From a virus (lineage: Duplodnaviria; Heunggongvirae; Uroviricota; Caudoviricetes), in the IMG/VR virus record IMGVR_UViG_2740892230_000028: a stretch of 10,854 nt of DNA. One strand, written 5' to 3'. Positions 1-10,854 of this stretch are shown piece by piece (the stretch's first letter is position 1; each line of letters starts with the position of its first letter). Below the pieces are notes generated by a model, which saw only the letters and a list, made by a program, of their open reading frames with translations, searched no databases and was not told the DNA's origin. Both the position numbers and the translations under genes were made by a program.

Positions 1-178
1 CAGTTGCACCACTGACGACCACATCACCTTCTGCTGCAATCGCCTGCATCAGGGTATAAGGGGTTATGGCCACCGGACTACCAAACGGCTGCCAGCCCTC
101 TTTCAGTTTGTGTGTCAGCTTTTCCGCAAGGTCTGACGGCGACGCCGCCCTGACAACATCATAATGTTTAAATGTCAT
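1..178 (-). CDS. DUF1737-like small prophage protein, 5' portion only (gene continues beyond the window start)
   Basis: ATG at 178-176 preceded by GGAGG with 4-nt spacing; translation MTFKHYDVVRAASPSDLAEKLTHKLKEGWQPFGSPVAITPYTLMQAIAAEGDVVVSGAT stays open to position 1. Family assignment is from memory of similar small proteins upstream of lysis genes in lambdoid prophages. Confidence 0.6.
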   Translation of the reverse strand, partial: MTFKHYDVVRAASPSDLAEKLTHKLKEGWQPFGSPVAITPYTLMQAIAAEGDVVVSGAT

Positions 179-221
179 TATTCCTCCCGGCCGGGATAGT
201 GTATTAAATCAGATATGGAGT

Positions 222-266
222 GGGCTGTAGTCCGGAAGCCTGAATGACACACGGGGACTACAGCCC
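222..266 (-). other. Perfect 12-bp inverted repeat (GGGCTGTAGTCC / GGACTACAGCCC) with 21-nt loop, in the 5' leader of the DUF1737-like gene
   Basis: Arms at 222-233 and 255-266 are exact reverse complements; no U-run follows on either strand, so it is not a simple terminator. Confidence 0.5.
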
Positions 267-274
267 AAGAAATG

Positions 275-300
275 AAAAAAGGCCACGCAGTTGCGCAGCC
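275..300 (-). terminator. Intrinsic terminator, minus strand
   Basis: On the minus strand GGCUGCGCAACUGCGUGGCC forms an 8-bp stem that includes two G-U pairs, followed by UUUUUU. The G-U pairs become A-C mismatches on the plus strand, so the structure is strand-specific. Confidence 0.55.
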
Positions 301-362
301 TGATAAACCCTGGTTAAAATCCACACGATAACAACACAACAATATCAGTATCTCATGCTATT

Positions 363-388
363 GCCCGAACCCATTCGGGCATTTTTTA
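363..388 (+). terminator. Intrinsic terminator, plus strand
   Basis: GCCCGAA-CCCA-TTCGGGC perfect 7-bp stem (363-380) followed by ATTTTTTA. Confidence 0.6.
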
Positions 389-392
389 CCCA

Positions 393-418
393 TAAAAAAT
401 GCCCCTCCGGAGAGGGGC
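393..418 (-). terminator. Intrinsic terminator, minus strand (convergent with the 363-388 terminator)
   Basis: Palindrome GCCCCTC-CGGA-GAGGGGC at 401-418 with the A-run 394-399 on the plus strand, which is a U-run after the hairpin on the minus strand. The same palindrome recurs at 1513-1530 and 1709-1726. Confidence 0.55.
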
Positions 419-493
419 ATGTTTGCATGCACATTCTTTTTCTTGCATGGTGCCGGGTGCCTCCCGGTGAATTCAGNNNNNNNNNNTGGTCGT

Positions 494-520
494 AAAAAAA
501 AGGCCGCGCCATGCGCAGCC
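494..520 (-). terminator. Intrinsic terminator, minus strand
   Basis: Minus-strand GGCUGCGC-AUG-GCGCGGCC 8-bp stem (one G-U pair) followed by eight U. Confidence 0.6.
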
Positions 521-580
521 GAAAATAAAGGGATAACGATGATAGTTTGAGAAAAACAGAAACAACACTTTTGCGGCAAA

Positions 581-688
581 GCATGGTGCCGGGTGCCTCC
601 CGGTGAATTCAGTATCAGCACCTGAATCCGCGATTATCCCATATACCTGGTTGCTGATCGCCCCTCCGCACAGGGGGATTCACCATGC
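581..688. repeat. Structured repeat element bounded by 8-bp inverted termini GCATGGTG ... CACCATGC (full copy)
   Basis: Contains internal hairpins CCGGG-TGCCT-CCCGG and CCCCT-CCGCAC-AGGGG and an EcoRI palindrome. Related copies or parts at 445-476, 759-810, 1751-1874 and 1957-2028. Confidence 0.6.
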
Positions 689-758
689 AGTAGTATTTTT
701 AATAAACAGCAAATAAAAAAATCAAGCATTATGCAGGCTGTTTCTTTTNNNNNNNNNN

Positions 759-810
759 CCCCATATTCCTTCTTGCTGATTGCCCCACCGCACAGGGGGA
801 TTCACCATGC
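759..810. repeat. Partial copy of the structured repeat (right-hand module ending CACCATGC), truncated by an N-run
   Basis: Near-identical to 636-688 with a few substitutions; the downstream 811-870 also matches 689-748. Confidence 0.55.
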
Positions 811-1139
811 AGAAGTGTTTTTAATAAACAGCAAACAAAAAAATCAAGCATTATGCAGGCTGTTTCTTTTNNNNNNNNNNGTTCTTTCCACCATCTGAAA
901 AATGATTCTTTAAAATACCTGACATGTAATACAGAAAAAACACAAAACCATACCTTAATTAAAAACCTCATCATCAAGCAGATATGCATGGATAAACTAC
1001 AAGACGAGATATAAACCACCCTGCATTTAAATAAACAATAAACAACATCAGAAAAATAATTCTGCTCTATGGTTTACAATCAAAAATATCATTTATACTT
1101 TTCAGAACATCACCAGCAAGGCATAAACAAGGAAACTAA

Positions 1140-1475
1140 ATGAAGTGGATTGTGATTGATACAGTTATCCAGCCATCATGCGGAATATCTTTTTCAGTCA
1201 TATGGAGTAAAATAAAATTAATAATCTGGTATCAATCGGATGCTTTCTTACCTCCTGAAAGTATATTTACACTGACTCACACAGGCATCATGCTCAATAA
1301 CAAAGTGCTGCCTGTAACCATTTACAACGTAGTACCATTCAATAAAACATTCTGGAATTTAATCAAAAACAGCCAGGAATGCCCTACAAATACAGATAAC
1401 GTATTGAATGAATGCTTTAATAACCGTTGCACTCTGCAAATATGTCCTTATGGGCTAAAACAACAAAGTCCATAA
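1140..1475 (+). CDS. Hypothetical orphan ORF in an AT-rich island (111 aa), opposite in orientation to the prophage genes
   Basis: A 111-codon open frame in visibly AT-rich DNA where stops should be frequent; AGGA about 8 nt upstream of the ATG; stop codon sits inside a 9-bp inverted repeat (TCCTTATGG / CCATAAGGA, 1443-1476). No recognisable family. Confidence 0.25.
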
Positions 1476-1576
1476 GGAGTTTACTCACATCTGACAAAAT
1501 CAATATAAACAGCCCCTCCGGAGAGGGGCTGGAGAGTGGCGCTANNNNNNNNNNAGAGACAACAGCCCGCAATACG

Positions 1577-1599
1577 AAAAAGGCCGCGCTATTGCGCAG
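1577..1599 (-). terminator. Intrinsic terminator-like hairpin, minus strand
   Basis: Minus-strand CUGCGC-AAUA-GCGCGG stem followed by CC and UUUUU; third member of the GGCCRCGC...TGCGCAG family. Confidence 0.4.
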
Positions 1600-1667
1600 A
1601 GTGATTACTGTCGGATATTATTCGCCAGCTGAAATATTACTTCACGTTTTATTGTTTATTCCTTGCC

Positions 1668-1696
1668 GCCCGCGTCTCCCAGCGCGGGCTTTTTTT
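1668..1696 (+). terminator. Intrinsic terminator, plus strand
   Basis: GCCCGCG-TCTCCCAG-CGCGGGC 7-bp GC stem followed by TTTTTTT (1690-1696). Confidence 0.65.
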
Positions 1697-1750
1697 GTCC
1701 ATAAGAAAGCCCCTCCGGAGAGGGGCTGGAGAGTGGCGCTATGTGCCATT

Positions 1751-1874
1751 GCATGGTGCCGGGTGCCTCCCGGTGAGTTCAGCCCGGTGCCACTAAACCC
1801 TCGTCATTCTCGTTTTGATAATCAGAGATTATACCGTCACCAGTCGCCCCTCCGCTCAGGGGGATTCACCATGC
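1751..1874. repeat. Structured repeat element, variant copy with the same 8-bp inverted termini and a different central segment
   Basis: Starts GCATGGTGCCGGGTGCCTCCCGGTGAGTTCAG and ends ...CCCCTCCGCTCAGGGGGATTCACCATGC. Confidence 0.55.
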
Positions 1875-1956
1875 AAAACTTTTTTAACAACTCTCCGTCA
1901 ACCAGACAATCATCAACTGCCTGAATTGTGAGGCATTTAACATTTCNNNNNNNNNN

Positions 1957-2028
1957 CCAGCACCTGAATCCGCGATTATCCCATATACCTACTCGCTGAT
2001 TGCCCCTCCGCACAGGGGGATTCACCAT
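1957..2028. repeat. Partial copy of the structured repeat, bounded by N-runs on both sides
   Basis: Matches 615-686 with a few substitutions. Confidence 0.55.
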
Positions 2029-2038
2029 NNNNNNNNNN

Positions 2039-2179
2039 TATCACCGGCCACAGCAATACCACAATGCCGCAGACCAGCACCCCATCCGCCAGCACCGACA
2101 TGATTCTGCTGGTGAAATCCACCATCACCACCAGAAACAGCAGGAGTGCAGCCACAGCCAGGCGCAGTTTTACCGTCAC
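2039..2179 (-). CDS. Small membrane protein, N-terminal fragment (truncated by N-run)
   Basis: GTG start overlaps the upstream stop in a GTGA junction; MTVKLRLAVAALLLFLVVMVDFTSRIMSVLADGVLVCGIVVLLWPVI is strongly hydrophobic. GC content is higher than in the neighbouring morons. Confidence 0.35.
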
Positions 2180-2325
2180 AGGTGATTCTCCAGACGAAGA
2201 CCCAGAACACCGGCAATCTCTTCCAGCACCTTGCGCTCTTCCGGCTCAATTTCGCCGTCTGCCTCCGCAATGGCCACCGCCACATCCAGCACATCTTCCG
2301 CTTCACGCGTATCGTGTTTCACATC
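2176..2325 (-). CDS. TerB-like protein, C-terminal fragment (5' end lost in N-run)
   Basis: Translation ...DVKHDTREAEDVLDVAVAIAEADGEIEPEERKVLEEIAGVLGLRLENHL* has the AxAxADGxIxxxExxxLxEIAxxLG pattern typical of TerB-family C-termini; stop TGA at 2176-2178. Confidence 0.4.
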   Translation of the reverse strand, partial: DVKHDTREAEDVLDVAVAIAEADGEIEPEERKVLEEIAGVLGLRLENHL

Positions 2326-2398
2326 NNNNNNNNNNCAGTTTCTTTTAACAAACTCCCCGCAAAACAGACAACAGTCAACCGTCTGAATTGTGAGACAT

Positions 2399-2426
2399 TT
2401 AAAAAAAAGGCCCGCAAAAGCGAGCC
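2399..2426 (-). terminator. Intrinsic terminator immediately downstream of the tRNA cluster, minus strand
   Basis: Minus-strand GGCUCGC-UUUU-GCGGGCC stem (one G-U pair) followed by a run of about 10 U. Confidence 0.6.
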
Positions 2427-2440
2427 AGGGAAAATAAGTG

Positions 2441-2517
2441 TGGCGCGTTGTACTGGATTCGAACCAGTGACCGATTGCTTAGAAGGCAATTGCTCTGTCC
2501 GGCTGAGCTAACAACGC
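2441..2517 (-). tRNA. tRNA-Arg (anticodon UCU), prophage-encoded
   Basis: Hand-folded cloverleaf: acceptor GCGTTGT/ACAACGC, D stem GCTC/GAGC, anticodon stem ATTGC/GCAAT with loop CTTCTAA, T arm ACTGG-TTCGAAT-CCAGT, discriminator G, CCA present. Confidence 0.85.
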
Positions 2518-2530
2518 TGGATACAGATAA

Positions 2531-2607
2531 TGGACCGCCTTCGGGGACCCGAACTCCGCGCAACCAGCTTCGAAAGCTGGCGCTCTTTCCTGATGAGCTA
2601 ATGGCGG
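2531..2607 (-). tRNA. tRNA-Arg-like (anticodon UCG), possibly degenerate
   Basis: Perfect anticodon stem CCAGC/GCTGG with loop TTTCGAA and CCA end, but an A-A mismatch in the acceptor stem, one mismatch in the T stem, and T-loop TTCGGGT (G where A58 is expected). Confidence 0.5.
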
Positions 2608-2614
2608 TATGTGA

Positions 2615-2690
2615 TGGTGGCCCTTGCTGGATTTGAACCAGCGACCTGGCGATTATGAGTCGCTCGCTCTCACCACTGAGCTAAAGGGCC
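2615..2690 (-). tRNA. tRNA with CAU anticodon, Ile2-like (lysidine type) or Met elongator
   Basis: Acceptor GGCCCTT/AAGGGCC, D stem GCTC/GAGC, anticodon loop CTCATAA, T arm GCTGG-TTCAAAT-CCAGC, CCA. Overall close to the E. coli tRNA-Ile2 sequence as I recall it. Confidence 0.8.
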
Positions 2691-2718
2691 GGGTCAAAAA
2701 ATAATAATCAGATGAAAA

Positions 2719-3432
2719 TCAATAATCAAGCCCTTGCCTGGATACATATCTGTCTGGCGGGAAGCCATAATAGCGGTGAAATACAGAAATAAAGTAGGAC
2801 CAGCTTGAATAACCGCATTTTTCTGCTACAGCCTGTCCATATCCATGCCGGGAACATAACATATTCACAGCAACACGCATCCGCTCTTCCAGCAACAAGC
2901 GACTGAACATGTGCCCTTCATTTTTCAGTTTTATCTTTAACAAACTCTCACTCATATGCAGGCGTAACGCAATCGCACCAAGCGTCCAGCTTGCTGATAT
3001 ATCTGTCTGAATTATCGCCCTGACTTTGGCACTTATACTGGATAAACATCCACTTAAAAATAATAATATCCGTTCATCTGATTCAAACAGCGACAGGCAT
3101 GCCATCATAAGAAACATATCCGTGGTATCTCCGGAAAATCTCTGGCTGGTAATTAAAGCCTCAGCCAACGCAGGGTTGTTGGGTTCCAGTGACAGATAAA
3201 GCGGAACGTCAGTCAGATGAGTTCTTGTCAGCTTATGCTGAATTTCCAGATATTGACTTACTATGGAATGGTTTATATCGAAAATTTTAACTTTGCCATA
3301 ATGCATAAGGAAAAGCGCCCTGATGCATTTGGTGGCCAGAACGACTGAGCCGGGCTTAAGTGACAACGTATCCTTTTCAAGAAAAATATTAATTGGGGAG
3401 CAAACCATGATAACTGAACAGACAACAACCAT
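2719..3432 (-). CDS. AraC/XylS-family transcriptional regulator (prophage moron)
   Basis: C-terminal double HTH signature ...SWTLGAIALRLHMSESLLKIKLKNEGHMFSRLLLEERMRVAVNMLCSRHGYGQAVAEKCGYSSWSYFISVFHRYYGFPP...; AT-rich gene. Start is ambiguous (ATG at 3432 or 3408) and neither has a clear SD; a TATAAT-like hexamer abuts the first ATG. Confidence 0.8.
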   Translation of the reverse strand: MVVVCSVIMVCSPINIFLEKDTLSLKPGSVVLATKCIRALFLMHYGKVKIFDINHSIVSQYLEIQHKLTRTHLTDVPLYLSLEPNNPALAEALITSQRFSGDTTDMFLMMACLSLFESDERILLFLSGCLSSISAKVRAIIQTDISASWTLGAIALRLHMSESLLKIKLKNEGHMFSRLLLEERMRVAVNMLCSRHGYGQAVAEKCGYSSWSYFISVFHRYYGFPPDRYVSRQGLDY

Positions 3433-3570
3433 TATAATTTTACTTTCATTAGCAATTGGTTAGTTCAATTATAGCCCCAAAAGGTAAATTATCATCAACA
3501 CATAAGCAAAGGACTGACAGGTGCCGCTAACACCCACCAGCCGCCCATTTACCACAAATANNNNNNNNNN

Positions 3571-3781
3571 GCACCCGCCAGAACTGCGCCAGACACTGGT
3601 CCAGCCACTTCAGGTAATCATCGTCGCCCTTCCACTGGTTATCCCAGCCCTCAGGCTTCACTTTAAAGTACGGCGGGTCCGTGACTATCAGGTCAACAGA
3701 ATTTTCGGGTAACGACCGGATAAATTCCAGGCAGTCGGCGTTGATTAACTCACAACTGGATATTTTTACAGTATTAAGCAT
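3571..3781 (-). CDS. DNA N6-adenine/N4-cytosine methyltransferase, N-terminal fragment (interrupted by N-run)
   Basis: MLNTVKISSCELINADCLEFIRSLPENSVDLIVTDPPYFKVKPEGWDNQWKGDDDYLKWLDQCLAQFWRV contains the DPPY catalytic motif of amino-methyltransferases. Only about 70 codons lie before the N-run. Confidence 0.7.
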
Positions 3782-3920
3782 GGATCATTAAGCCTGTCTC
3801 TGATAGGCTCATTCTGCTTTTGCGCAAAGCAGTGGGCCTGAGGTTTGCTTGTGAACCCAACGCATGAGCAGATGGCTGGTGGGTGCCCCTAACACCCACC
3901 AGCCGCCCATTTACCACAAA

Positions 3921-3945
3921 TAAAAAAGCCTTCACTGCGGAAGGC
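3921..3945 (-). terminator. Intrinsic terminator after the small ORF, minus strand
   Basis: GCCTTC-ACTGCG-GAAGGC perfect 6-bp stem (3928-3945) with a six-U run on the minus strand (plus-strand A-run 3922-3927); the ORF stop lies within the hairpin. Confidence 0.6.
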
Positions 3946-4129
3946 GTCTGTAACAACCGAACTGATAGTCTGCCAGACCCGCCATAACCAGCTGGGTCAG
4001 TATTAACTGGCAGCGTTCGCGTGAAAGGTAAGTATTCTGCGCTATCTCCCCGACTGTCGCCGGTTCGGTAACGCTTAATTCATTAAACACCACTCTGGCG
4101 GTTTCTGTCATATCCTGCTGTTTTAGCAT
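3932..4129 (-). CDS. Small hypothetical protein (65 aa), possible winged-helix / HTH-like
   Basis: ATG at 4129-4127; MLKQQDMTETARVVFNELSVTEPATVGEIAQNTYLSRERCQLILTQLVMAGLADYQFGCYRRLPQ; terminator upstream (4252-4273) and downstream (3921-3945). The alternative start at 4111 would give 59 aa. Confidence 0.45.
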   Translation of the reverse strand: MLKQQDMTETARVVFNELSVTEPATVGEIAQNTYLSRERCQLILTQLVMAGLADYQFGCYRRLPQ

Positions 4130-4251
4130 GTCTTTTTCCCTTTTCCGGTTAACGTGACACACCAATAACTCTTGTCGAAAAAGCCAGCAAGCTGAAAGAC
4201 AGGTATTCACCGCCACCAGCACGTTTACTGTACTGACGCGATTTCAGTCAT

Positions 4252-4273
4252 AAAAAACCCGCCAGGCGGCGGG
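4252..4273 (-). terminator. Intrinsic terminator, minus strand
   Basis: CCCGCC-AGGC-GGCGGG stem (4258-4273) with a six-U run on the minus strand. Confidence 0.55.
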
Positions 4274-4373
4274 GTGTAAAAAATCTTCTAACGTCAGGCA
4301 TAAAACGCCCANNNNNNNNNNCTGTATTAATAACTACCAGCACATTTAACGCACTGCGCTACTTTGCGGGCAC

Positions 4374-4396
4374 AAAAAACCCGCTCAGAGGCGGGG
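4374..4396 (-). terminator. Intrinsic terminator downstream of the CPBP gene, minus strand
   Basis: CCCGC-TCAGAG-GCGGG stem with a six-U run on the minus strand; homologous to the 4252-4273 terminator. Confidence 0.5.
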
Positions 4397-4536
4397 TCAA
4401 GCTATGCGGCGAAATAACCACTCTTAACAGCATACCTGATTTTTTACGTACGTAAATGCTTTGCCGTGCATATTTTTCATGCAAATGTCACGTCCTGCTA
4501 TTTTTCAGTCTTATAAATTTAAAACCATAGAAAAAA

Positions 4537-5355
4537 TCAATTATGTTTTAAAAATGGATAGGTAAAGAATAACAAGTGACACAGATTCAAACCAAAATGG
4601 AAAAGGGTGGCAACCCACAAACGCCCACTCCACATCCATGACAATCCATACACAACACCAGATAACGTGGCAAATAATACAAGTAAAGCACCACCTGAAT
4701 AGTGATAAAAACCAAACAACAAAGCCGCCACAATTAATGCAACCAATGGAGACGTTACTTCTGATAGCCGTGATTGAATATACCCTCTAAATAATGATTC
4801 CTCTGCCAGAGACACAAAAAACAAATTAGCCAATATAAACTCTGGCAACCACTCAGGAAAATGAATCTCTGGCTTTAATCCACCAAAAAAAACAGCCAAA
4901 AACAGGATAAGAGGAACAGAGAGCGACAGAGCCCCCCACTTCCACAAAGACACTTCTGATTTTACTTCTTTTTTAAACAAAGAAGATGTACACAGGACTA
5001 ACAAAAATGGCACCAGCGCTTTATCAAAATTAAAATACATTGTATAGGGAGTACTTTGAGGGCCAACAGTAACAGAATTTAGCACTACAGGATTGTGAAA
5101 CCCTGGCCATAGATGGAAAGATAATGCTATGGCTGATAAAACTATGCCAACTTCATATATAGATTTAGCCCAGGCGTTATATTTCCAGTTGAACTTCAAA
5201 ATAATAAAAAAAACGATTGTAGCAACAAAAAATAACACCGACCAATCAATAATATCATTAAGCACAGCCAGGACAACAGACACCGTCAACAATGAAAAAG
5301 CCACTACCTTATGCCAACTGAGAGTTGACAGTGACAGTACTAACACAATCCACAT
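4537..5355 (-). CDS. CPBP-family (CAAX protease / Abi-domain) intramembrane metalloprotease-like protein, moron directly downstream of Q
   Basis: ATG at 5355 with AAGGAG 5 nt upstream; multi-TM hydrophobic protein carrying the three CPBP motifs in order: EESLFR (EExxxR), FGFYH (FxxxH), HFGLN (HxxxN). Gene and flanks are visibly AT-rich. Confidence 0.8.
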   Translation of the reverse strand: MWIVLVLSLSTLSWHKVVAFSLLTVSVVLAVLNDIIDWSVLFFVATIVFFIILKFNWKYNAWAKSIYEVGIVLSAIALSFHLWPGFHNPVVLNSVTVGPQSTPYTMYFNFDKALVPFLLVLCTSSLFKKEVKSEVSLWKWGALSLSVPLILFLAVFFGGLKPEIHFPEWLPEFILANLFFVSLAEESLFRGYIQSRLSEVTSPLVALIVAALLFGFYHYSGGALLVLFATLSGVVYGLSWMWSGRLWVATLFHFGLNLCHLLFFTYPFLKHN

Positions 5356-5507
5356 AAGCACTCCTTTTATTTAATGATGAAGATTGATTATCAATATTTT
5401 CAATTCACCAGGCAACATTTTATCTACCTTCCACAATACATGACCATCAAAAAAATAAACATGTTAATTATAAACACAGAAAACATAACCCTCATCACTA
5501 TATATCC
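5356..5507 (-). promoter_or_regulatory. AT-rich Q-to-moron intergenic region, the expected location of the late promoter and Q-utilisation site
   Basis: Positional inference from lambdoid gene order; a TATAAT hexamer lies on the minus strand at 5467-5472 with no convincing -35, and no GC hairpin terminator is present. Confidence 0.3.
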
Positions 5508-5879
5508 CTACCGCATATCCATATCTAACCGGACATTCAGAGCCATAAGCATTCCTTCAATAATACCTTCCGCTTTATAAAGCCTTTTACCAATAAGCCC
5601 ATCAGAACATCTATGCTTACGTGCAAGAGCCATAAATGTCATTCCACCTACGTAATAATCCACCAACAAATCGTGCAAATACTGATTATTCTTGTTTAAT
5701 CGTGCCATACAACCACAAATTATCATGGCGTCATCATCAGAACACTGAGGACGTGATTTCACTTTAGTCGGGATTAATCCTTTAAAACCAGCAGCTATCG
5801 AGGGCCATGTTACATCTTCATGATTATTTGCTGCCCATGCCCCCCATCGCTCAAGAACCATCTGGATATCACGCGCCAT
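5508..5879 (-). CDS. Short Q-family antitermination protein (quuD-like, ~124 aa)
   Basis: [61 protein letters not shown]...; ATG at 5879 with GAGGTGG 5 nt upstream; overlaps the rusA 3' end by 11 nt. Resembles the short antiterminator that follows rusA in E. coli DLP12, from memory. Confidence 0.7.
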
Positions 5880-6240
5880 CGTTACCACCTCTGATTTCGT
5901 AAATCTTCACGCCCAGCCGTCCACCTGGCACAGGCTGACCGCGCACAATATTGATTTCATCAAACTGCTCGTCATCAATGAGCACTTCCGCATGCGTCAG
6001 CGCATCCAGCGGTGCTTTCAGAATGTTGTCCAGGTCACGGCGGCGCTTATCCGGTGGTTCTGCAATAATTTTTATTGCCAGCCGTCCGGACAGGCTTAAT
6101 TTCAGCCGCTGCTGGCGAACAATAAGCGCCACAGCCCGGCGATAACGCTCACCGGCTTTTGATACAAAATATGTGCTGCCACGACGTCGCCAGTAGGTGT
6201 TCACCGTCGGCGGGTAAGGCAAAACAAACTCTATACGCAT
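5869..6240 (-). CDS. rusA: Crossover junction endodeoxyribonuclease RusA (Holliday junction resolvase)
   Basis: [41 protein letters not shown]...[31 protein letters not shown]... matches the conserved RusA core (DKRRRDLDN); AAGAGGT SD upstream of the ATG at 6240. Confidence 0.9.
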
Positions 6241-6252
6241 CAGTAACCTCTT

Positions 6253-6827
6253 TTACCCGAGCACGCCGGTTGCAAAAGCGTGATCAAGAAAACGAAAAAT
6301 TAAATCAACCTGGGAACCATGCTTTTCTTCGAACGCCAGCGGATCCGCATGAAGCTCGTTGTGATGCTCCCGACACAGCGGTAGCGTGAAAATATCGTGG
6401 GATTTTGTTCCCATTCCACCCTGACCATGACCAATCAGATGATGAGGATCGTCCGCTGGCTTACCACAACACGCACACGGCTGTGTCTTTACCCAGCGTG
6501 TGTATTTCTCATTTACCCAGCGGCGACGTTTAGGTCGTTTCATGAAGGATTCCGGAGACTCCGGATCAACGGCAATGCTGACCACCGTCTTTTCCTGTGG
6601 TGGGTTCTGTTGCTGGTGGGTGTGAGGCGGTAGCGCAATATTTTTTGTGCGCTGCTTCAGTATGCTGGTGGCGGTCTGTTCTCCCGGTATGATGTCGCTT
6701 TCACGGTATACGGAGCGGATTTTTTCCGCCGGTAATCCCAGAGAACGACGCGATACTGCCTCAGGTAATGCGTCCACCACCTGATTGCAGACTGCCCACC
6801 AGGATAATTCAGCCAGCGATAATTCCC
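6253..6827 (-). CDS. DUF968 (YdfU-like) prophage protein, C-terminal ~190 codons (5' end lost in N-run)
   Basis: ...ELSLAELSWWAV...TVVSIAVDPESP...WVKTQPCACCGKPADDPHHLIGHGQGGMGTKSHDIFTLPLCREHHNELHADPLAFEEKHGSQ...; stop TAA at 6253-6255 is 12 nt before the rusA start. Confidence 0.75.
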
Positions 6828-6837
6828 NNNNNNNNNN

Positions 6838-7148
6838 CCCACCACAACGCTGGCAGTTTCTGAAAACCGGCACACCCTGTTTTTCCGACTCTTCACGATG
6901 AATGGCAACACCGCGCCCACGACAATCTGTACAGGCGGTGGAAACCTCCCCCTTTCCGCCACACTCCGGACAGGCAACTTTTANNNNNNNNNNACCACCA
7001 CAACGCTGGCAGTCTCTGATAACAGGCATACCACGTTTTACCGACTCTTCACGATGAATGGCAACACCGCGCCCACGACAATCTTTACAGGCGGTGGAAA
7101 CCTCCCCCTTCCCTCCACACTCCGGACAGGCAACTTTTACCACCTCCC
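6838..7148 (-). repeat. Two near-identical ~150-bp coding units, each encoding a paired CxxCxGxG zinc-ribbon module, separated and flanked by N-runs
   Basis: 6838-6983 and 6994-7148 differ by several substitutions; each encodes ...KVACPECGGKGEVSTAC(K/T)DCRGRGVAIHREES.K.G.PV.R.CQRCGG. The same module begins at the end of the Q-like N-terminal piece (7159-7245). Confidence 0.6.
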
Positions 7149-7158
7149 NNNNNNNNNN

Positions 7159-7734
7159 GACACCACGCCCACGGCAATCCTTACAGGCGGTGGAAACCTC
7201 ACCCTTTCCGCCACACTCCGGACAGGCAACTTTTACCACCTCCCTGACTTTTTTCCATTCCTCCCAGTAAGACGGATACACGCCTTTTGTGCACTTTGCC
7301 CACACTGGCGGCTTACCATCCGGATACTGGATCTTGTTTGTAAAAACCTCGCTTTCAATAAATTTTTTTCCGTGACAGCAGGGGCACTGTTTTTTGCTCG
7401 CCGCGCTACGGGCATAATCTTCAAACGCATACGAAGCCATAATGCGCATCACTACCGGTTTTATTTCTGCCGGGAGTTTTCTCAACGCCGCCACACGATC
7501 GCACCGACTGAGTGCATAATCTGCCAGTAATTCTGTTGCCCGCGCCCTGTCATTCATACTGATGCCCATTTTCCCCAGGAACGCAGAAAACCCCATCTCA
7601 GCCCGATTCTGTGTCATGCCCTGCGCGGCCATCACATCAGTGATACTCAGCGCATCTTTTGACGTTGAGGCCGATGCATCAGTCAGGCCGGGGGATTTTG
7701 GGGAGTAGTATTTCGGTAAATCTTCCAGTTTCAT
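7159..7734 (-). CDS. Lambda-Q-family antitermination protein, N-terminal part (3' end lost in N-run)
   Basis: MKLEDLPKYYSPKSPGLTDASASTSKDALSITDVMAAQGMTQNRAEMGFSAFLGKMGISMND...MASYAFEDYARSAASKKQCPCCHGKK... aligns motif for motif with my recollection of the lambda Q N-terminus (SPKSP, TDVMAA.GM.Q, GF..AF.GK, S.ND, FAY.DY.RSAA, C..CHG). The ATG at 7734 overlaps the upstream rusA stop (ATGA). Confidence 0.65.
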
Positions 7735-7968
7735 TTTTTGACCTGCCCTTCAAGCATTATGGGGTAAATCTTCACCCCCATACGTCCACCAGATACTGGC
7801 TGACCACGAACGATATTGATTTCATCAAACTGCTCATCGTCCATTAACACTCCCGCATGCGTCAGCGCATCCAGCGGTGCTTTCAGGATATTGTCCAGGT
7901 CGCGACGACGCTTATCCGGTGGCTCTGCAATCACCTTTATCGCCAGCCTTCCGGACAGGCTTAATTTC
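7731..7968 (-). CDS. rusA: RusA, C-terminal half (5' end lost in N-run); runs directly into the Q-like gene
   Basis: ...[78 protein letters not shown]. Confidence 0.75.
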
Positions 7969-7978
7969 NNNNNNNNNN

Positions 7979-8243
7979 GCAACCCCGCATGCGTCAGCGC
8001 ATCCAGCGGCGCTTTCAGAATATTGTCCAGGTCACGGCGGCGCTTATCCGGTGGCTCGGCAATAATCTTTATCGCCAGCCTTCCGGACAGGCTTAATTTC
8101 AGCCGCTGCTGGCGAACAATAAGCGCCACAGCCCGGCGATAACGCTTTCCCTCCTCCGAGATAAAATATGTGCTGCCACGGCGTCGCCAGTAAGTGTTCA
8201 CCGTCGGCGGGTAAGGTAAAACAAATTCTATGCGCTCGGTCAT
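7979..8243 (-). CDS. rusA: RusA, N-terminal part (3' end lost in N-run); a different copy from 7731-7968
   Basis: [88 protein letters not shown]; the segment before the N-run overlaps in homology with the segment after it, so the two pieces are not contiguous. Confidence 0.75.
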
Positions 8244-8590
8244 TTATGCTTTCCACTTCAGAACACCCGAATTTCTCGCGTGCATTAAAAAACGAATCAG
8301 CAACAACAGCTGGCTGCCGTGTTTTTCTTCAAAATCTTTTACCCCGGCGTGTAGTTCGCTATGGCATTTACGGCACAGCGGAATAACAAACAAATCATCA
8401 GCCTTTGTTCCCATCCCTCCCAGTCCATGACCAATGATGTGATGCGGATCATCTGCCTGATTGCCACACGTCATGCATTTCTGCGTTTTTACCCAGCGCG
8501 TGTATACAGGCATCTCTTCCCGTTGTGATTTCTGGCGCTGGAGATACTGAGCCGGTGACTCCGGATCAACGGCAATGCTGACCACCGTCT
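8244..8590 (-). CDS. Divergent DUF968-type C-terminal Cys/His domain protein (5' end lost in N-run), immediately followed by rusA
   Basis: TVVSIAVDPESPAQYLQRQKSQREEMPVYTRWVKTQKCMTCGNQADDPHHIIGHGLGGMGTKADDLFVIPLCRKCHSELHAGVKDFEEKHGSQLLLLIRFLMHARNSGVLKWKA*; roughly half the residues match the other DUF968 C-termini. Confidence 0.6.
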
Positions 8591-8600
8591 NNNNNNNNNN

Positions 8601-8633
8601 TGGCGGGTAAGGTAAAACCAAATCTATGGGCAT
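8601..8633 (-). CDS. rusA: rusA 5' fragment (first 11 codons, then N-run)
   Basis: ATG at 8633 with AGAGGTGA SD; MPIDLVLPYPP matches the RusA N-terminus (cf. [11 protein letters not shown] at 6240). Confidence 0.6.
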
Positions 8634-8645
8634 CAGTCACCTCTT

Positions 8646-9088
8646 TTACCCAAGCACGCCTGTTGCGAAGGCGTGATCAAGAAAATGAAAAATTAACTCA
8701 ACCTGGGAGCCGTACTTTTTCTCAAACTCCAGCGGGTCAGCATGAAGTTCGTTGTGGTGCTCCCGGCACAACGGTAGTGTGAAAATATCGTGGGCCTTTG
8801 TTCCCATTCCGCCCTGCCCATGGCCAATCAGGTGATGCGGATCATCAGCTGGCTTTCCACAACATGCGCACGGCTGCGTCTTAACCCAGCGTGTGTACTT
8901 TTCATTAACCCAGCGACGACGTTTAGGCCGTTTCATGAAAGATTCCGGAGACTCCGGATCAACGGCGATGCTTACTACCGTCTTTTCCTGTGGCGTGGTT
9001 TGTGGCTGGTGGGCGTGAAGCGGTAGCGCTATGTTTTTTGTGCGCTGCTTCAGGATGCTGGTGGCGGTCTGTTCTCCCGGTATGATGT
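8646..9088 (-). CDS. DUF968 (YdfU-like) protein, C-terminal part (second copy; 5' end lost in N-run)
   Basis: ...IIPGEQTATSILKQRTKNIALPLHAHQPQTTPQEKTVVSIAVDPESPESFMKRPKRRRWVNEKYTRWVKTQPCACCGKPADDPHHLIGHGQGGMGTKAHDIFTLPLCREHHNELHADPLEFEKKYGSQVELIFHFLDHAFATGVLG*. Fragment 9099-9247 is a further paralogous linker piece. Confidence 0.75.
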
Positions 9089-9257
9089 NNNNNNNNNNCG
9101 GGTTTTGCTGGTGGGCGTGAGGCAGCGGCGCAAGATTTTTTGTGCGCTGCTTCAGTATGCTGGTGGCGGTCTGCTCTCCCGGTACGATGTCGCTTTCACG
9201 GTACATTGAGCGGATTTTTTCCGCACGCAACCCCAGCGAACGACGTANNNNNNNNNN

Positions 9258-9635
9258 TGATGTCGCTTTCACTGTACACAGAGCGAATTTTTTCCGCACG
9301 CAACCCCAGCGAACGACGTAATACCGCTTCCGGTAGCGCGTCCGCCACCTGATTGCGGACCGCCCACCAGGATAATTCAGCCAGAGATAATTCACGCTCC
9401 TGCGTACCGCTTATTGCGTGACGGATGATGTCAATCATCCAGGCGGCCAGATTCTGTTGAGCAAGTTGATCCAGTGAATCAGATGTCTGCTCCCGCAGCT
9501 GGTTGTCGCAGTGCCAGCACAACACCATTGCGCCGGTACCATAACGGTGAATGACGGTTTCGCTGTGATGATAATCACCGTGTAGCCACTGGCAGGATTT
9601 CACGTGACGTAATAACCAGTCAGACAGTGCACCAG
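9258..9635 (-). CDS. DUF968 protein, middle section (bounded by N-runs)
   Basis: GALSDWLLRHVKSCQWLHGDYHHSETVIHRYGTGAMVLCWHCDNQLREQTSDSLDQLAQQNLAAWMIDIIRHAISGTQERELSLAELSWWAVRNQVADALPEAVLRRSLGLRAEKIRSVYSESDI; about 90% identical to the overlapping part of 9646-10041. Confidence 0.7.
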
Positions 9636-9645
9636 NNNNNNNNNN

Positions 9646-10041
9646 TATGCCATTCATTGCGTGGCGGATGACGTCAATCATCCATGCTGACAGGTTTTGT
9701 TGAGCAAGTTGCTCAAGTGATTCGGATGTCTGGTCGCGCAGCTGGTTGTCGCAGTGCCAGCACAACACCATTGCGCCGGTACCATAACGATGTATGACAG
9801 TTTCGCTGTGATGATAATCACCATGAGGCCACTGGCAGGATTTAACGTGACGTAATAACCAGTCAGACAGTGCACCAGCGCCACCAGCAGCACGAATCAC
9901 ACGCTCATTGCTGAAAAATGGCAGTAATGATTTATCTTCCGCCAGCGGCTGGCGAACGGCAGGAACGACCCCGGACGGCAGATTACGCATGCTTTTCGGT
10001 TCCGGCTCCACCAGTACCCGGGTATTGTGGAATACCGGCAT
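9646..10041 (-). CDS. DUF968 protein, N-terminal section (3' end lost in N-run); start uncertain
   Basis: MPVFHNTRVLVEPEPKSMRNLPSGVVPAVRQPLAEDKSLLPFFSNERVIRAAGGAGALSDWLLRHVKSCQWPHGDYHHSETVIHRYGTGAMVLCWHCDNQLRDQTSESLEQLAQQNLSAWMIDVIRHAMNGI. ATG at 10041; an in-frame GTG at 10113 with GGAGGT 3 nt upstream is an alternative start. Confidence 0.6.
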
Positions 10042-10064
10042 GGATTCACGGCCCGGCTTAACGA

Positions 10065-10209
10065 TCACCAGCCCGAGTTCCGGTACCAGAACAGGTCGAA
10101 GTAATACCCGCACATTACCTCCAGATCCGTTGCTGGAATGTGCGGGACGGACGCGGTGGCCGTTCGGAGTAAGGGAGCCTGACGGAGATTATCCAGTGAC
10201 GGTAGTCGA
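10065..10209 (-). CDS. C-terminal fragment of an unidentified upstream nin-region gene
   Basis: Open frame ...RLPSLDNLRQAPLLRTATASVPHIPATDLEVMCGYYFDLFWYRNSGW* ending at TGA 10065-10067, 24 nt upstream of the DUF968 ATG; no family recognised. Confidence 0.3.
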
Positions 10210-10243
10210 NNNNNNNNNNGCGAATTGTAAACCAGAATGCCAG

Positions 10244-10271
10244 GAAAAAACAAAACCCGCCGAAGCGGGTT
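10244..10271 (-). terminator. Intrinsic terminator, minus strand
   Basis: AACCCGC-CGAA-GCGGGTT perfect 7-bp stem with a U-run on the minus strand; duplicate of 10811-10840. Confidence 0.55.
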
Positions 10272-10440
10272 AAGTGCNNNNNNNNNNTGACTTAAATGCG
10301 TGAGAATACCGCTCGTGCGTGTGGGCAAGAACGGTCGAATTATCATGTTTGTAATATTTTGCGTTGCGTGCCATCGGTTTTCTCCGGTGGCACGGTGTTA
10401 CTCAGCGGGAGTTCAGCCCCGCGCAAGATTGTAGATGAGT

Positions 10441-10692
10441 TTATTCTTCTGAAAAAGCAGAAAAGCCAGCTTTTATTCCGATCTCTTTCAATACCTGTAA
10501 TGAAGTGACAAACTCACCGTCGCGCAAGATAAATCCGTCCGTCACTCGGGCATCCACAAAATTAATTAACGCAGCCCCATTTTTTTGCAAACACACAATG
10601 CGGTAATGACTAACAATATTTCCATTTTCAACGCACACAGCATAGAGGCCATCTTCACAAAAAATTTTACGCAGTTCTTCGATGTTCATCAT
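10441..10692 (-). CDS. Hypothetical prophage protein (83 aa)
   Basis: ATGATG start with GGAAGGA about 7 nt upstream; MMNIEELRKIFCEDGLYAVCVENGNIVSHYRIVCLQKNGAALINFVDARVTDGFILRDGEFVTSLQVLKEIGIKAGFSAFSEE; compact gene with terminators on both sides. Confidence 0.6.
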   Translation of the reverse strand: MMNIEELRKIFCEDGLYAVCVENGNIVSHYRIVCLQKNGAALINFVDARVTDGFILRDGEFVTSLQVLKEIGIKAGFSAFSEE

Positions 10693-10810
10693 CAGAATCC
10701 TTCCGGATAATTAGCTCTCCCCTTTAAGGGACCATCCCTCTTATCCCTGCGCGCTACTTAAGTATTTTTGATTCTATTCCGGCACCGTCCAGAACTTCAA
10801 ATGCGTTGAA

Positions 10811-10840
10811 AATAAAAACAAAAACCCGCCGAAGCGGGTT
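10811..10840 (-). terminator. Intrinsic terminator, minus strand
   Basis: AACCCGC-CGAA-GCGGGTT stem (10823-10840) preceded on the plus strand by an A-rich run, which is a U-run after the hairpin on the minus strand. Confidence 0.6.
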
Positions 10841-10854
10841 AAGTGCGGGTGCGT

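Follow-up and report, generated by a model that had tools for sequence, protein, structure and literature searches.

False duplications are a familiar product of assembling heterozygous or polyploid genomes: both arms of a bubble are kept side by side, yielding apparent tandem duplicates and chimeric gene models. In short-read scaffolding with Pebble, nodes that are unique as judged by coverage are linked by read pairs, and where no path through the graph is found a buffer of Ns is written, its length equal to the distance estimate (Zerbino et al. 2009, PMC2793427). Here we analyse the viral record IMGVR_UViG_2740892230_000028, the whole 10,854 nucleotides (nt) of which – ‘the window’ – carry the late-regulatory block of lambdoid prophages, including the Q antiterminator, rusA and DUF968/ydfU genes, broken up by runs of N. 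The window is the entire GenBank whole-genome shotgun record CCPR01000392.1 of the draft assembly GCA_000752855.1 in its deposited orientation; the record number, 392, means that the assembly has at least 392 records, i.e. is fragmented. A literature search on the accession of the record found nothing relevant. The window is very probably a short-read scaffold that chains variant pieces of this one gene block, contributed by at least four similar Escherichia coli prophages, with 10-N placeholders, and the mosaic and every gene that crosses an N run are artefacts, not biology.

Results

Flanks of most N runs overlap in closed genomes

Nineteen N runs, every one exactly 10 long – the same count that the first-pass annotation of this DNA had given – divide the window into 20 segments (S00–S19, Table 1) of 58 to 2,506 bases. 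Each segment was mapped on all of six closed-genome E. coli loci, namely F2_81 (L001), Z0117EC0051 (L002), 2013C-3264 (L003), L004, 55989 (L006) and O111:H- 11128 (L007), and both flanks of each N run were extrapolated onto every reference holding them. At 16 of the 19 junctions the flanks are homologous overlaps of 63–1603 bases, with values that agree across references, and three junctions hide 62–597 missing bases. As judged against these six references, no junction (0/19) is compatible with 10 unresolved bases: all N gaps have one fixed length, unrelated to the implied distances, which run from −1603 to +597. Adjacent pieces at the 16 overlapping junctions are alternatives of one locus, and the pieces are contiguous with non-adjacent segments in real genomes. 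The true neighbours that are separated in the window include S01 and S06 (0 bases between them, 2013C-3264), S05 and S07 (2 bases, F2_81), base 178 of S00 and S03 (1 base, Z0117EC0051), S09 and S17 (7 bases, F2_81) and S13 and S15 (10 bases, 55989). The sequence upstream of S06 in the references is the last 79 nt of S01 (2013C-3264) or of S02 (L004), and S06 directly continues both. S10 and S11 map to the same reference coordinates and are fully superposed.

An all-against-all comparison of the segments has the form of a staircase, in which nearly every segment tail matches the following segment, at its head or in its interior, with 86–93% identity. Five duplicate pairs had been listed in the first-pass annotation, and all five are present, although their extents needed small coordinate corrections. 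The DUF968 pair holds for 9413–9635 versus 9656–9878 (203/223 positions, 91%), while the longer stretch claimed for it, 9258–9635, is not duplicated throughout. The proposed overlap of two rusA halves is found at 7852–7968 and 7984–8100 (109/117, 93%), and the repeat placed at 3521–3560 and 3881–3920 at 3521–3558 and 3883–3920 (37/38), the latter within a wider match of 86% between 3496–3560 and 3858–3922. The two duplicated terminators likewise recur, the first at 4249–4275 and 4371–4397 (24/26 plus indels) and the second at 10246–10271 and 10814–10840 (26/26 plus one indel). This list understated the pattern, since homologous overlapping flanks are the rule at 16 of the 19 junctions.

Three threads interleave in the window

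Among 5,426 complete E. coli genomes, 4,739 contain matches to the window, and in no genome (0/5,426) does a single place hold at least 80% of it; the best places cover 63–65% of the query and span only 5.4–6 kb of the record. On the six closed-genome loci the segments instead resolve into three interleaved threads, each running in increasing window order: thread A follows F2_81, thread B follows Z0117EC0051 together with 55989, and thread C follows 2013C-3264 (Table 1). S02, S04 and S10 are further alleles outside these threads (thread D fragments). Four alleles, S01, S02, S04 and S05, are stacked at the position of S05, and Q is present as three long alleles (S10, S11 and the head of S12) and one short allele (S09); therefore at least four prophage copies contribute, the fourth of which rests on S02, S04 and S10 and on these allele counts.

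The assignment of S13 as part of a fourth prophage type was dropped, since S13 threads with S08, S12, S15 and S19 in 55989 and so belongs to thread B. Its identities, 98.7% to 55989 as a single piece and 75–79% to four other reference prophages, show deeply divergent allelic forms of the rusA/DUF968 block within E. coli. The first 94 nt of S01 (487–580) align to none of the six reference loci and are probably a diverged allele from an unsampled prophage; they carry a terminator-like hairpin (502–520, minus strand) that resembles the hairpins at 280–301 and 1584–1599. Absent from the window is the 871-nt body of the thread B methyltransferase gene (Z0117EC0051 locus, 9333–10203), expected between S07 and S08 (about window 2709–3570), although the flanks of the gene are present (its 5′ end in S08). 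Neither the thread A nor the thread C reference shares this stretch, and a collapsed repeat is no obvious explanation for its absence. Other stretches missing from the window are the 3′ end of long Q (Z0117EC0051 locus, 10943–11163), 231 nt of the F2_81 locus (13102–13332) and the 5′ part of the TerB gene (2013C-3264 locus, 4722–5348).

Eleven segments end in shared words of one length

In eleven of the 20 segments (S01–S03, S07 and S10–S16) the terminal word shared with another segment is exactly 34 nt long, the base before it being different there, and none of the 20 starts with a recurring word longer than 15 nt. As background, a shared length of exactly 34 occurs at 0.2% of 9,352 internal positions, which gives a binomial P of ~4e-25 for 11 of 20. 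At the other end, the reference sequence directly upstream of the start of S05, S12, S14 and S15 recurs in another segment for 34–69 nt, and the base that follows in that other segment differs from the first base of the segment in question: S05, for example, starts with the first base after a 34-nt word common with S01, and S12 starts at the branch point after a word of at least 50 nt common with S11. The shared 34-nt ends taken together with the variant bases at the starts therefore identify the segments as bubble arms of a de Bruijn graph with k−1 = 34, i.e. k = 35. Each arm retains the k−1 bases that run into the following shared node and is missing the first k−1 bases of its own, as expected if an assembler concatenates the nodes of its graph internally. 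S09 contains the first 15 nt of S16 once more; neither this nor a 6-nt overlap between S14 and S16 that is considered below is predicted by the simple k−1 trimming model.

With its interleaved matches of 97–100%, its lack of any junction collinear with a 10-base gap and its 34-nt end signature, the window bears out the earlier proposal that contigs of several lambdoid prophages from short reads had been chained. The course of events may be pictured as follows. In the genome or sample there are very probably four or more lambdoid prophages or prophage remnants, which share the late-regulatory block at about 75–97% identity. In the de Bruijn graph the copies would make up a ladder-like series of bubbles, and every variant arm, at single-copy coverage, would become a separate small contig. 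Paired reads would tie all arms to the same neighbourhood, and the scaffolder, finding no single path, would lay them consecutively in rough positional order, writing a minimum-size buffer of 10 Ns even though the true distance is either negative, where the arms are alleles of one position, or exceeds 10. The N runs thus represent nothing, and adjacent segments are mostly alternatives, not neighbours. What this picture builds on was observed directly: the threads are braided, gaps are negative, shared ends measure exactly 34 nt and the first k−1 bases are missing; the program, we infer, was Velvet with Pebble scaffolding.

Gene content and chimeric genes

According to the annotation of the 97–100% identical references, the content is that of a lambdoid prophage late-regulatory block on the minus strand of the window. 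Its order is the 5′ end of nanS-p (SASA esterase), an optional iraM, an Arg-Arg-Ile tRNA cluster and a variable cargo slot, followed by the Q antiterminator, rusA, DUF968/ydfU, a small hypothetical gene and rem, with hokD just beyond the window. The cargo slot is filled by an AraC-type helix-turn-helix (HTH) gene plus a CPBP protease gene, by a DNA methyltransferase gene, or by DUF3927 plus TerB. Pfam and tRNA scans of the intact open reading frames (ORFs) agree with this annotation, Pfam matches to the pieces include Phage_antitermQ, Antiterm, RusA and DUF968, and matches in the phage collection are mainly to Shiga toxin (Stx)-converting and other lambdoid phages.

The record has 17 called genes, seven of which cross N runs (Table 1) and are chimeras. 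The first-pass annotation had already flagged N-spanning ORFs as composite, naming 6253–7734, 7731–8243, 8646–9395 and 9196–10113, and each of the four does cross one to three N runs. The 493-amino-acid (aa) product of 6253–7734, which spans three N runs, runs from a Q N-terminus through a zinc-finger block present three times into the C-terminal half of DUF968, and is matched by Pfam with three Antiterm stretches plus DUF968; in the 305-aa product of 9196–10113 one DUF968 stretch occurs twice. An exact look-up of the former product matched a single contig, CCPR01000392.1. Four chimeric ORF products are absent, by exact look-up, from a collection of 15 billion proteins, and pollution of protein databases cannot be claimed.

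Genes that lie inside one segment are real (Table 1). Our own Pfam scan (E <= 0.001) assigned no family to iraM or rem; in a precomputed Pfam list the same products carry PF11183 (PmrD) and PF27490 (Rem), respectively. The third tRNA gene (2615–2690, minus strand) is called Met (anticodon CAT) by ARAGORN, and the identical reference gene is tRNA-Ile in RefSeq; the latter call fits a lysidine-modified CAU isoleucine tRNA, and the difference is one of naming only. Terminator-like hairpins number 32 in the window against 11.9 expected, because the same hairpins recur two or three times as alleles. A GC-rich hairpin, CCCCTCTCCGGAGGGG, occurs three times on the minus strand, at 399–420 (S00), 1510–1531 (S03) and 1708–1727 (S04); all three are allelic forms of a single terminator in the intergenic DNA that separates nanS-p from the tRNA cluster.

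Table 1. Segments of the window with their closest references and shared ends, followed by the genes contained in one segment and the called genes that cross N runs. Identities are to the reference loci given in the text; distances are to the next segment, negative values being overlaps.
Feature	Coordinates	Strand	Content	Thread	Identity to references	Shared end (recurrence)	Implied distance	Following N run
S00	1..476	-	nanS-p (SASA esterase) gene 5′ end (1–178) and downstream intergenic DNA	C; 1–178 also B	L003 99.6% (full length); 1–178 vs L002 97.8%	last 32 nt identical to 581–612 in S01	−126 (all six references)	477–486
S01	487..748	-	intergenic allele	C (581–748)	581–748 (segment bases 95–262) vs L003 98.8%	715–748 (identical terminal 34-mer in S02)	−111/−112	749–758
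S02	759..870	-	second allele of the intergenic stretch of S01; extra prophage	D	best L004, only 95.5%; vs S01 638–748 92.8%	837–870 (identical terminal 34-mer in S01)	−840	871–880
S03	881..1544	+	iraM (anti-adapter) insertion	B	L002 8180–8843 99.7%, iraM annotated there	1511–1544 (S04 1708–1741)	−187	1545–1554
S04	1555..1946	-	nanS-p/tRNA-cluster intergenic allele; further prophage	D	L007 and other genomes 97.4% (full length); 70–86% vs other references		−147	1947–1956
S05	1957..2028	-	72-nt node	A and B	L001, L002, L006 100%			2029–2038
S06	2039..2325	-	DUF3927 gene and 3′ part of TerB-family gene (TerB Pfam match on called gene)	C	L003 99.7%; L004 100%			2326–2335
S07	2336..3560	-	three tRNAs (tRNA-Arg, tRNA-Arg, tRNA-Ile/Met(CAU)) and AraC-type HTH gene (HTH_18/HTH_AraC)	A	L001 8523–9747 99.8%	3527–3560 (S08 3889–3922)	−352	3561–3570
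S08	3571..4311	-	DNA methyltransferase gene 5′ end, 65-aa hypothetical gene and region downstream of long Q with terminator-like hairpin 4258–4273	B	L002 99.3%; L006 99.7%		−112 (L001) or −682 (other references)	4312–4321
S09	4322..6827	-	terminator 4380–4395, CPBP/Rce1-like gene, short Q, rusA and DUF968/ydfU truncated by segment end (only 3′ 575 nt); Pfam Rce1-like, Phage_antitermQ, RusA	A	L001 10026–12530 99.9%		about −1600	6828–6837
S10	6838..6983	-	long (822-nt type) Q gene fragment, allele 1 of 3	D	all references only 90–93%; vs S11 93%	6950–6983 (S12 7202–7235)	−146	6984–6993
S11	6994..7148	-	same long-Q portion as S10, allele 2 of 3	C	L003, L004 100%	7115–7148 (S12 7211–7244)		7149–7158
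S12	7159..7968	-	long Q 5′ two-thirds (allele 3) and rusA 3′ part	B	L002 11233–12042 99.0%	7935–7968 (S13 8067–8100)	−122	7969–7978
S13	7979..8590	-	rusA 5′ part and DUF968 3′ part, divergent allele	B (55989-like)	L006 98.7%	8557–8590 (S09 6557–6590)	−383	8591–8600
S14	8601..9088	-	rusA start and DUF968 3′ part	C	L003 6332–6819 100%; vs S09 6209–6695 88%	9055–9088 (S09 6662–6695)	−92	9089–9098
S15	9099..9247	-	DUF968 middle fragment	B	L002, L006 100%	9214–9247 (S16 9287–9320)	−63	9248–9257
S16	9258..9635	-	DUF968 middle fragment	C	L003 6814–7191 98.4%, contiguous with S14 there	9602–9635 (9845–9878)		9636–9645
S17	9646..10209	-	DUF968 5′ part and start of upstream 279-nt hypothetical gene	closest to A	L001 12538–13101 97.0%		+231 (L001, L003) or +597 (L002, L006)	10210–10219
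S18	10220..10277	-	58-nt node with terminator-like hairpin 10254–10271, duplicated in S19	A and C	L001, L003 100%		−558	10278–10287
S19	10288..10854	-	rem (Rem Pfam family on called gene) and terminator hairpin 10823–10840	B	L006 100%; L002 99.3%, rem annotated there			record end
iraM	1140–1475	+	intact, in S03
tRNA cluster	2441–2690		in S07
AraC-type HTH gene	2719–3432		intact, in S07
65-aa hypothetical gene	3932–4129		in S08
CPBP/Rce1-like gene	4537–5361		intact, in S09
short Q	5508–5888		intact, in S09
rusA	5869–6240		intact, in S09
rem	10441–10692	-	intact, in S19
N-crossing gene	1442–1924		chimera
N-crossing gene	1976–2179		chimera
N-crossing gene	3527–3781		chimera
N-crossing gene	6253–7734		chimera
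N-crossing gene	7731–8243		chimera
N-crossing gene	8244–8633		chimera
N-crossing gene	9196–10113		chimera

Discussion

Several points weigh against the reading of the window as a scaffold of stacked prophage alleles. The three junctions with 62–597 missing bases still have 10 Ns, though a Pebble buffer should equal the distance estimate; for 10 Ns to stand at such positive-gap junctions, either the source must differ from the references or read pairs between copies must have distorted the distance estimates. According to its manual, Velvet reportedly writes gaps shorter than 10 bases as 10 Ns, and it reportedly prints scaffolded nodes without their first k−1 bases. The sequence has both traits; the Pebble paper confirms only the N buffer between unique nodes, and a search of the literature on 10 Ns with Velvet did not confirm the floor, the papers retrieved being ones in which scaffolds are split at 10 Ns. 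A few segment ends share 26–32 nt, not 34, which the simple model does not predict either, and S14 and S16 overlap by 6 nt (9083–9088 and 9258–9263) though they are contiguous in 2013C-3264, which may reflect graph simplification by the assembler. Finally, missing stretches were expected to be collapsed multi-copy repeats left out of the scaffold. One stretch, of 231 nt, agrees with this, as F2_81 (thread A) and 2013C-3264 (thread C) are 100% identical over it; for the 871-nt body of the thread B methyltransferase gene such an origin could not be demonstrated.

The idea that every missing stretch is a collapsed repeat is only partly borne out.

The same scaffolding artefact could also arise if the arms were contributed by more than one kind of cell, through mixing of cultures, contamination or a within-culture population of recombinant prophages, rather than by prophages co-resident in one chromosome. 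The fragmentation of the assembly (at least 392 records) fits a mixture as well as it fits a prophage-rich strain, and the window alone does not separate the two. A mixture is not needed, however, as multiple copies of the block are routine within one closed E. coli genome (median 2, up to 14–19 places), and PE164 and E105 each hold a thread-A-like place as well as a place of the TerB/DUF3927 type (L004-like). One chromosome is the simpler reading because closed genomes carry that many copies, and we infer that all copies sat in one genome; a mixture of cells we consider unlikely.

A second possibility, which we regard as quite improbable, is that contigs were ordered afterwards on a reference prophage or genome and joined by a fixed 10-N spacer, with no paired-read scaffolder involved. 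This would account for the rough backbone order and for spacers that are identical whatever the real distance, including at the three positive gaps. Ordering on a reference normally yields one pseudomolecule, however, not a 10.8-kb record among at least 392, and on no single reference do the segments advance strictly monotonically (S03 follows S01 and S02, and S18 precedes S19). Moreover, contigs exported separately would keep k−1 bases at both ends, whereas here the 34-mers are found only at the 3′ ends and the starts are trimmed to the first variant base, which points to concatenation within the assembler's own node representation. It is more doubtful still that some of the stacked alleles are not fixed prophage copies but reflect ongoing recombination or heterogeneity of the Q–rusA–ydfU block within the culture, such that a population of cells with mosaic prophages was captured as extra arms.

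We give almost no credence to a true tandem array of partial Q/rusA/DUF968 modules in which each N run hides about 10 bases. Only a literal reading of the record speaks for it. Such an arrangement is found in none of the 5,426 closed genomes, and the two-junction pattern made up of the S17 tail, N10, S18, N10 and the S19 head has no match in 185,579 species-representative genomes, a weak negative, as the source evidently lies outside that set or literal Ns go unmatched. In real prophages each segment adjoins one that is not next to it in the window, the repeats would leave every gene cut short, and repeat boundaries placed exactly 34 nt past variant bases are a property of an assembly graph, not of recombination. 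Equally negligible is the suggestion, also made in the first-pass annotation, that the N runs are deliberate masks laid over real sequence by a database or processing pipeline: while a uniform run length is typical of masking and one collection used is described as having a few masked stretches, the deposited record, fetched independently, holds the same 190 Ns with genes called across them, and masking of 10 bases would leave collinear flanks with a 10-base gap, seen at 0 of the 19 junctions.

Read as a scaffold of stacked alleles, the record is a warning about data quality, as what looks like 10.8 kb of contiguous prophage consists of at least four superposed copies of a block of about 5–6 kb. 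Searches of such records for new fusions of domains or for tandem repeats would mislead, as would gene counts or prophage boundaries taken from them. The component sequence is ordinary, well-known prophage DNA of low biological interest. The k−1 end signature, on the other hand, lets the k of the assembler (35) be read off the bare sequence and could be used generally as a simple test for artefacts of this kind that does not require reads.

Set beside Velvet/Pebble scaffolds, the window is similar in that its 34-nt shared ends fit a graph with k = 35 and its buffers are very short and uniform, and dissimilar in that a Pebble buffer follows the distance estimate whereas the buffers here are always 10 Ns. 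Compared with the late region of lambdoid or Stx-type prophages, the gene content and order of each thread match those of F2_81/EDL933, Z0117EC0051, 55989 and 2013C-3264 at 97–100%, but no single real prophage contains the window, which is a superposition of several. A further parallel may be that with false duplications from uncollapsed alleles or haplotigs: in both cases divergent copies of one locus appear to be laid out in tandem, although the ‘alleles’ of the window would be paralogues, borne by the prophages of a haploid bacterium (or of a mixture), and at least four of them rather than two.

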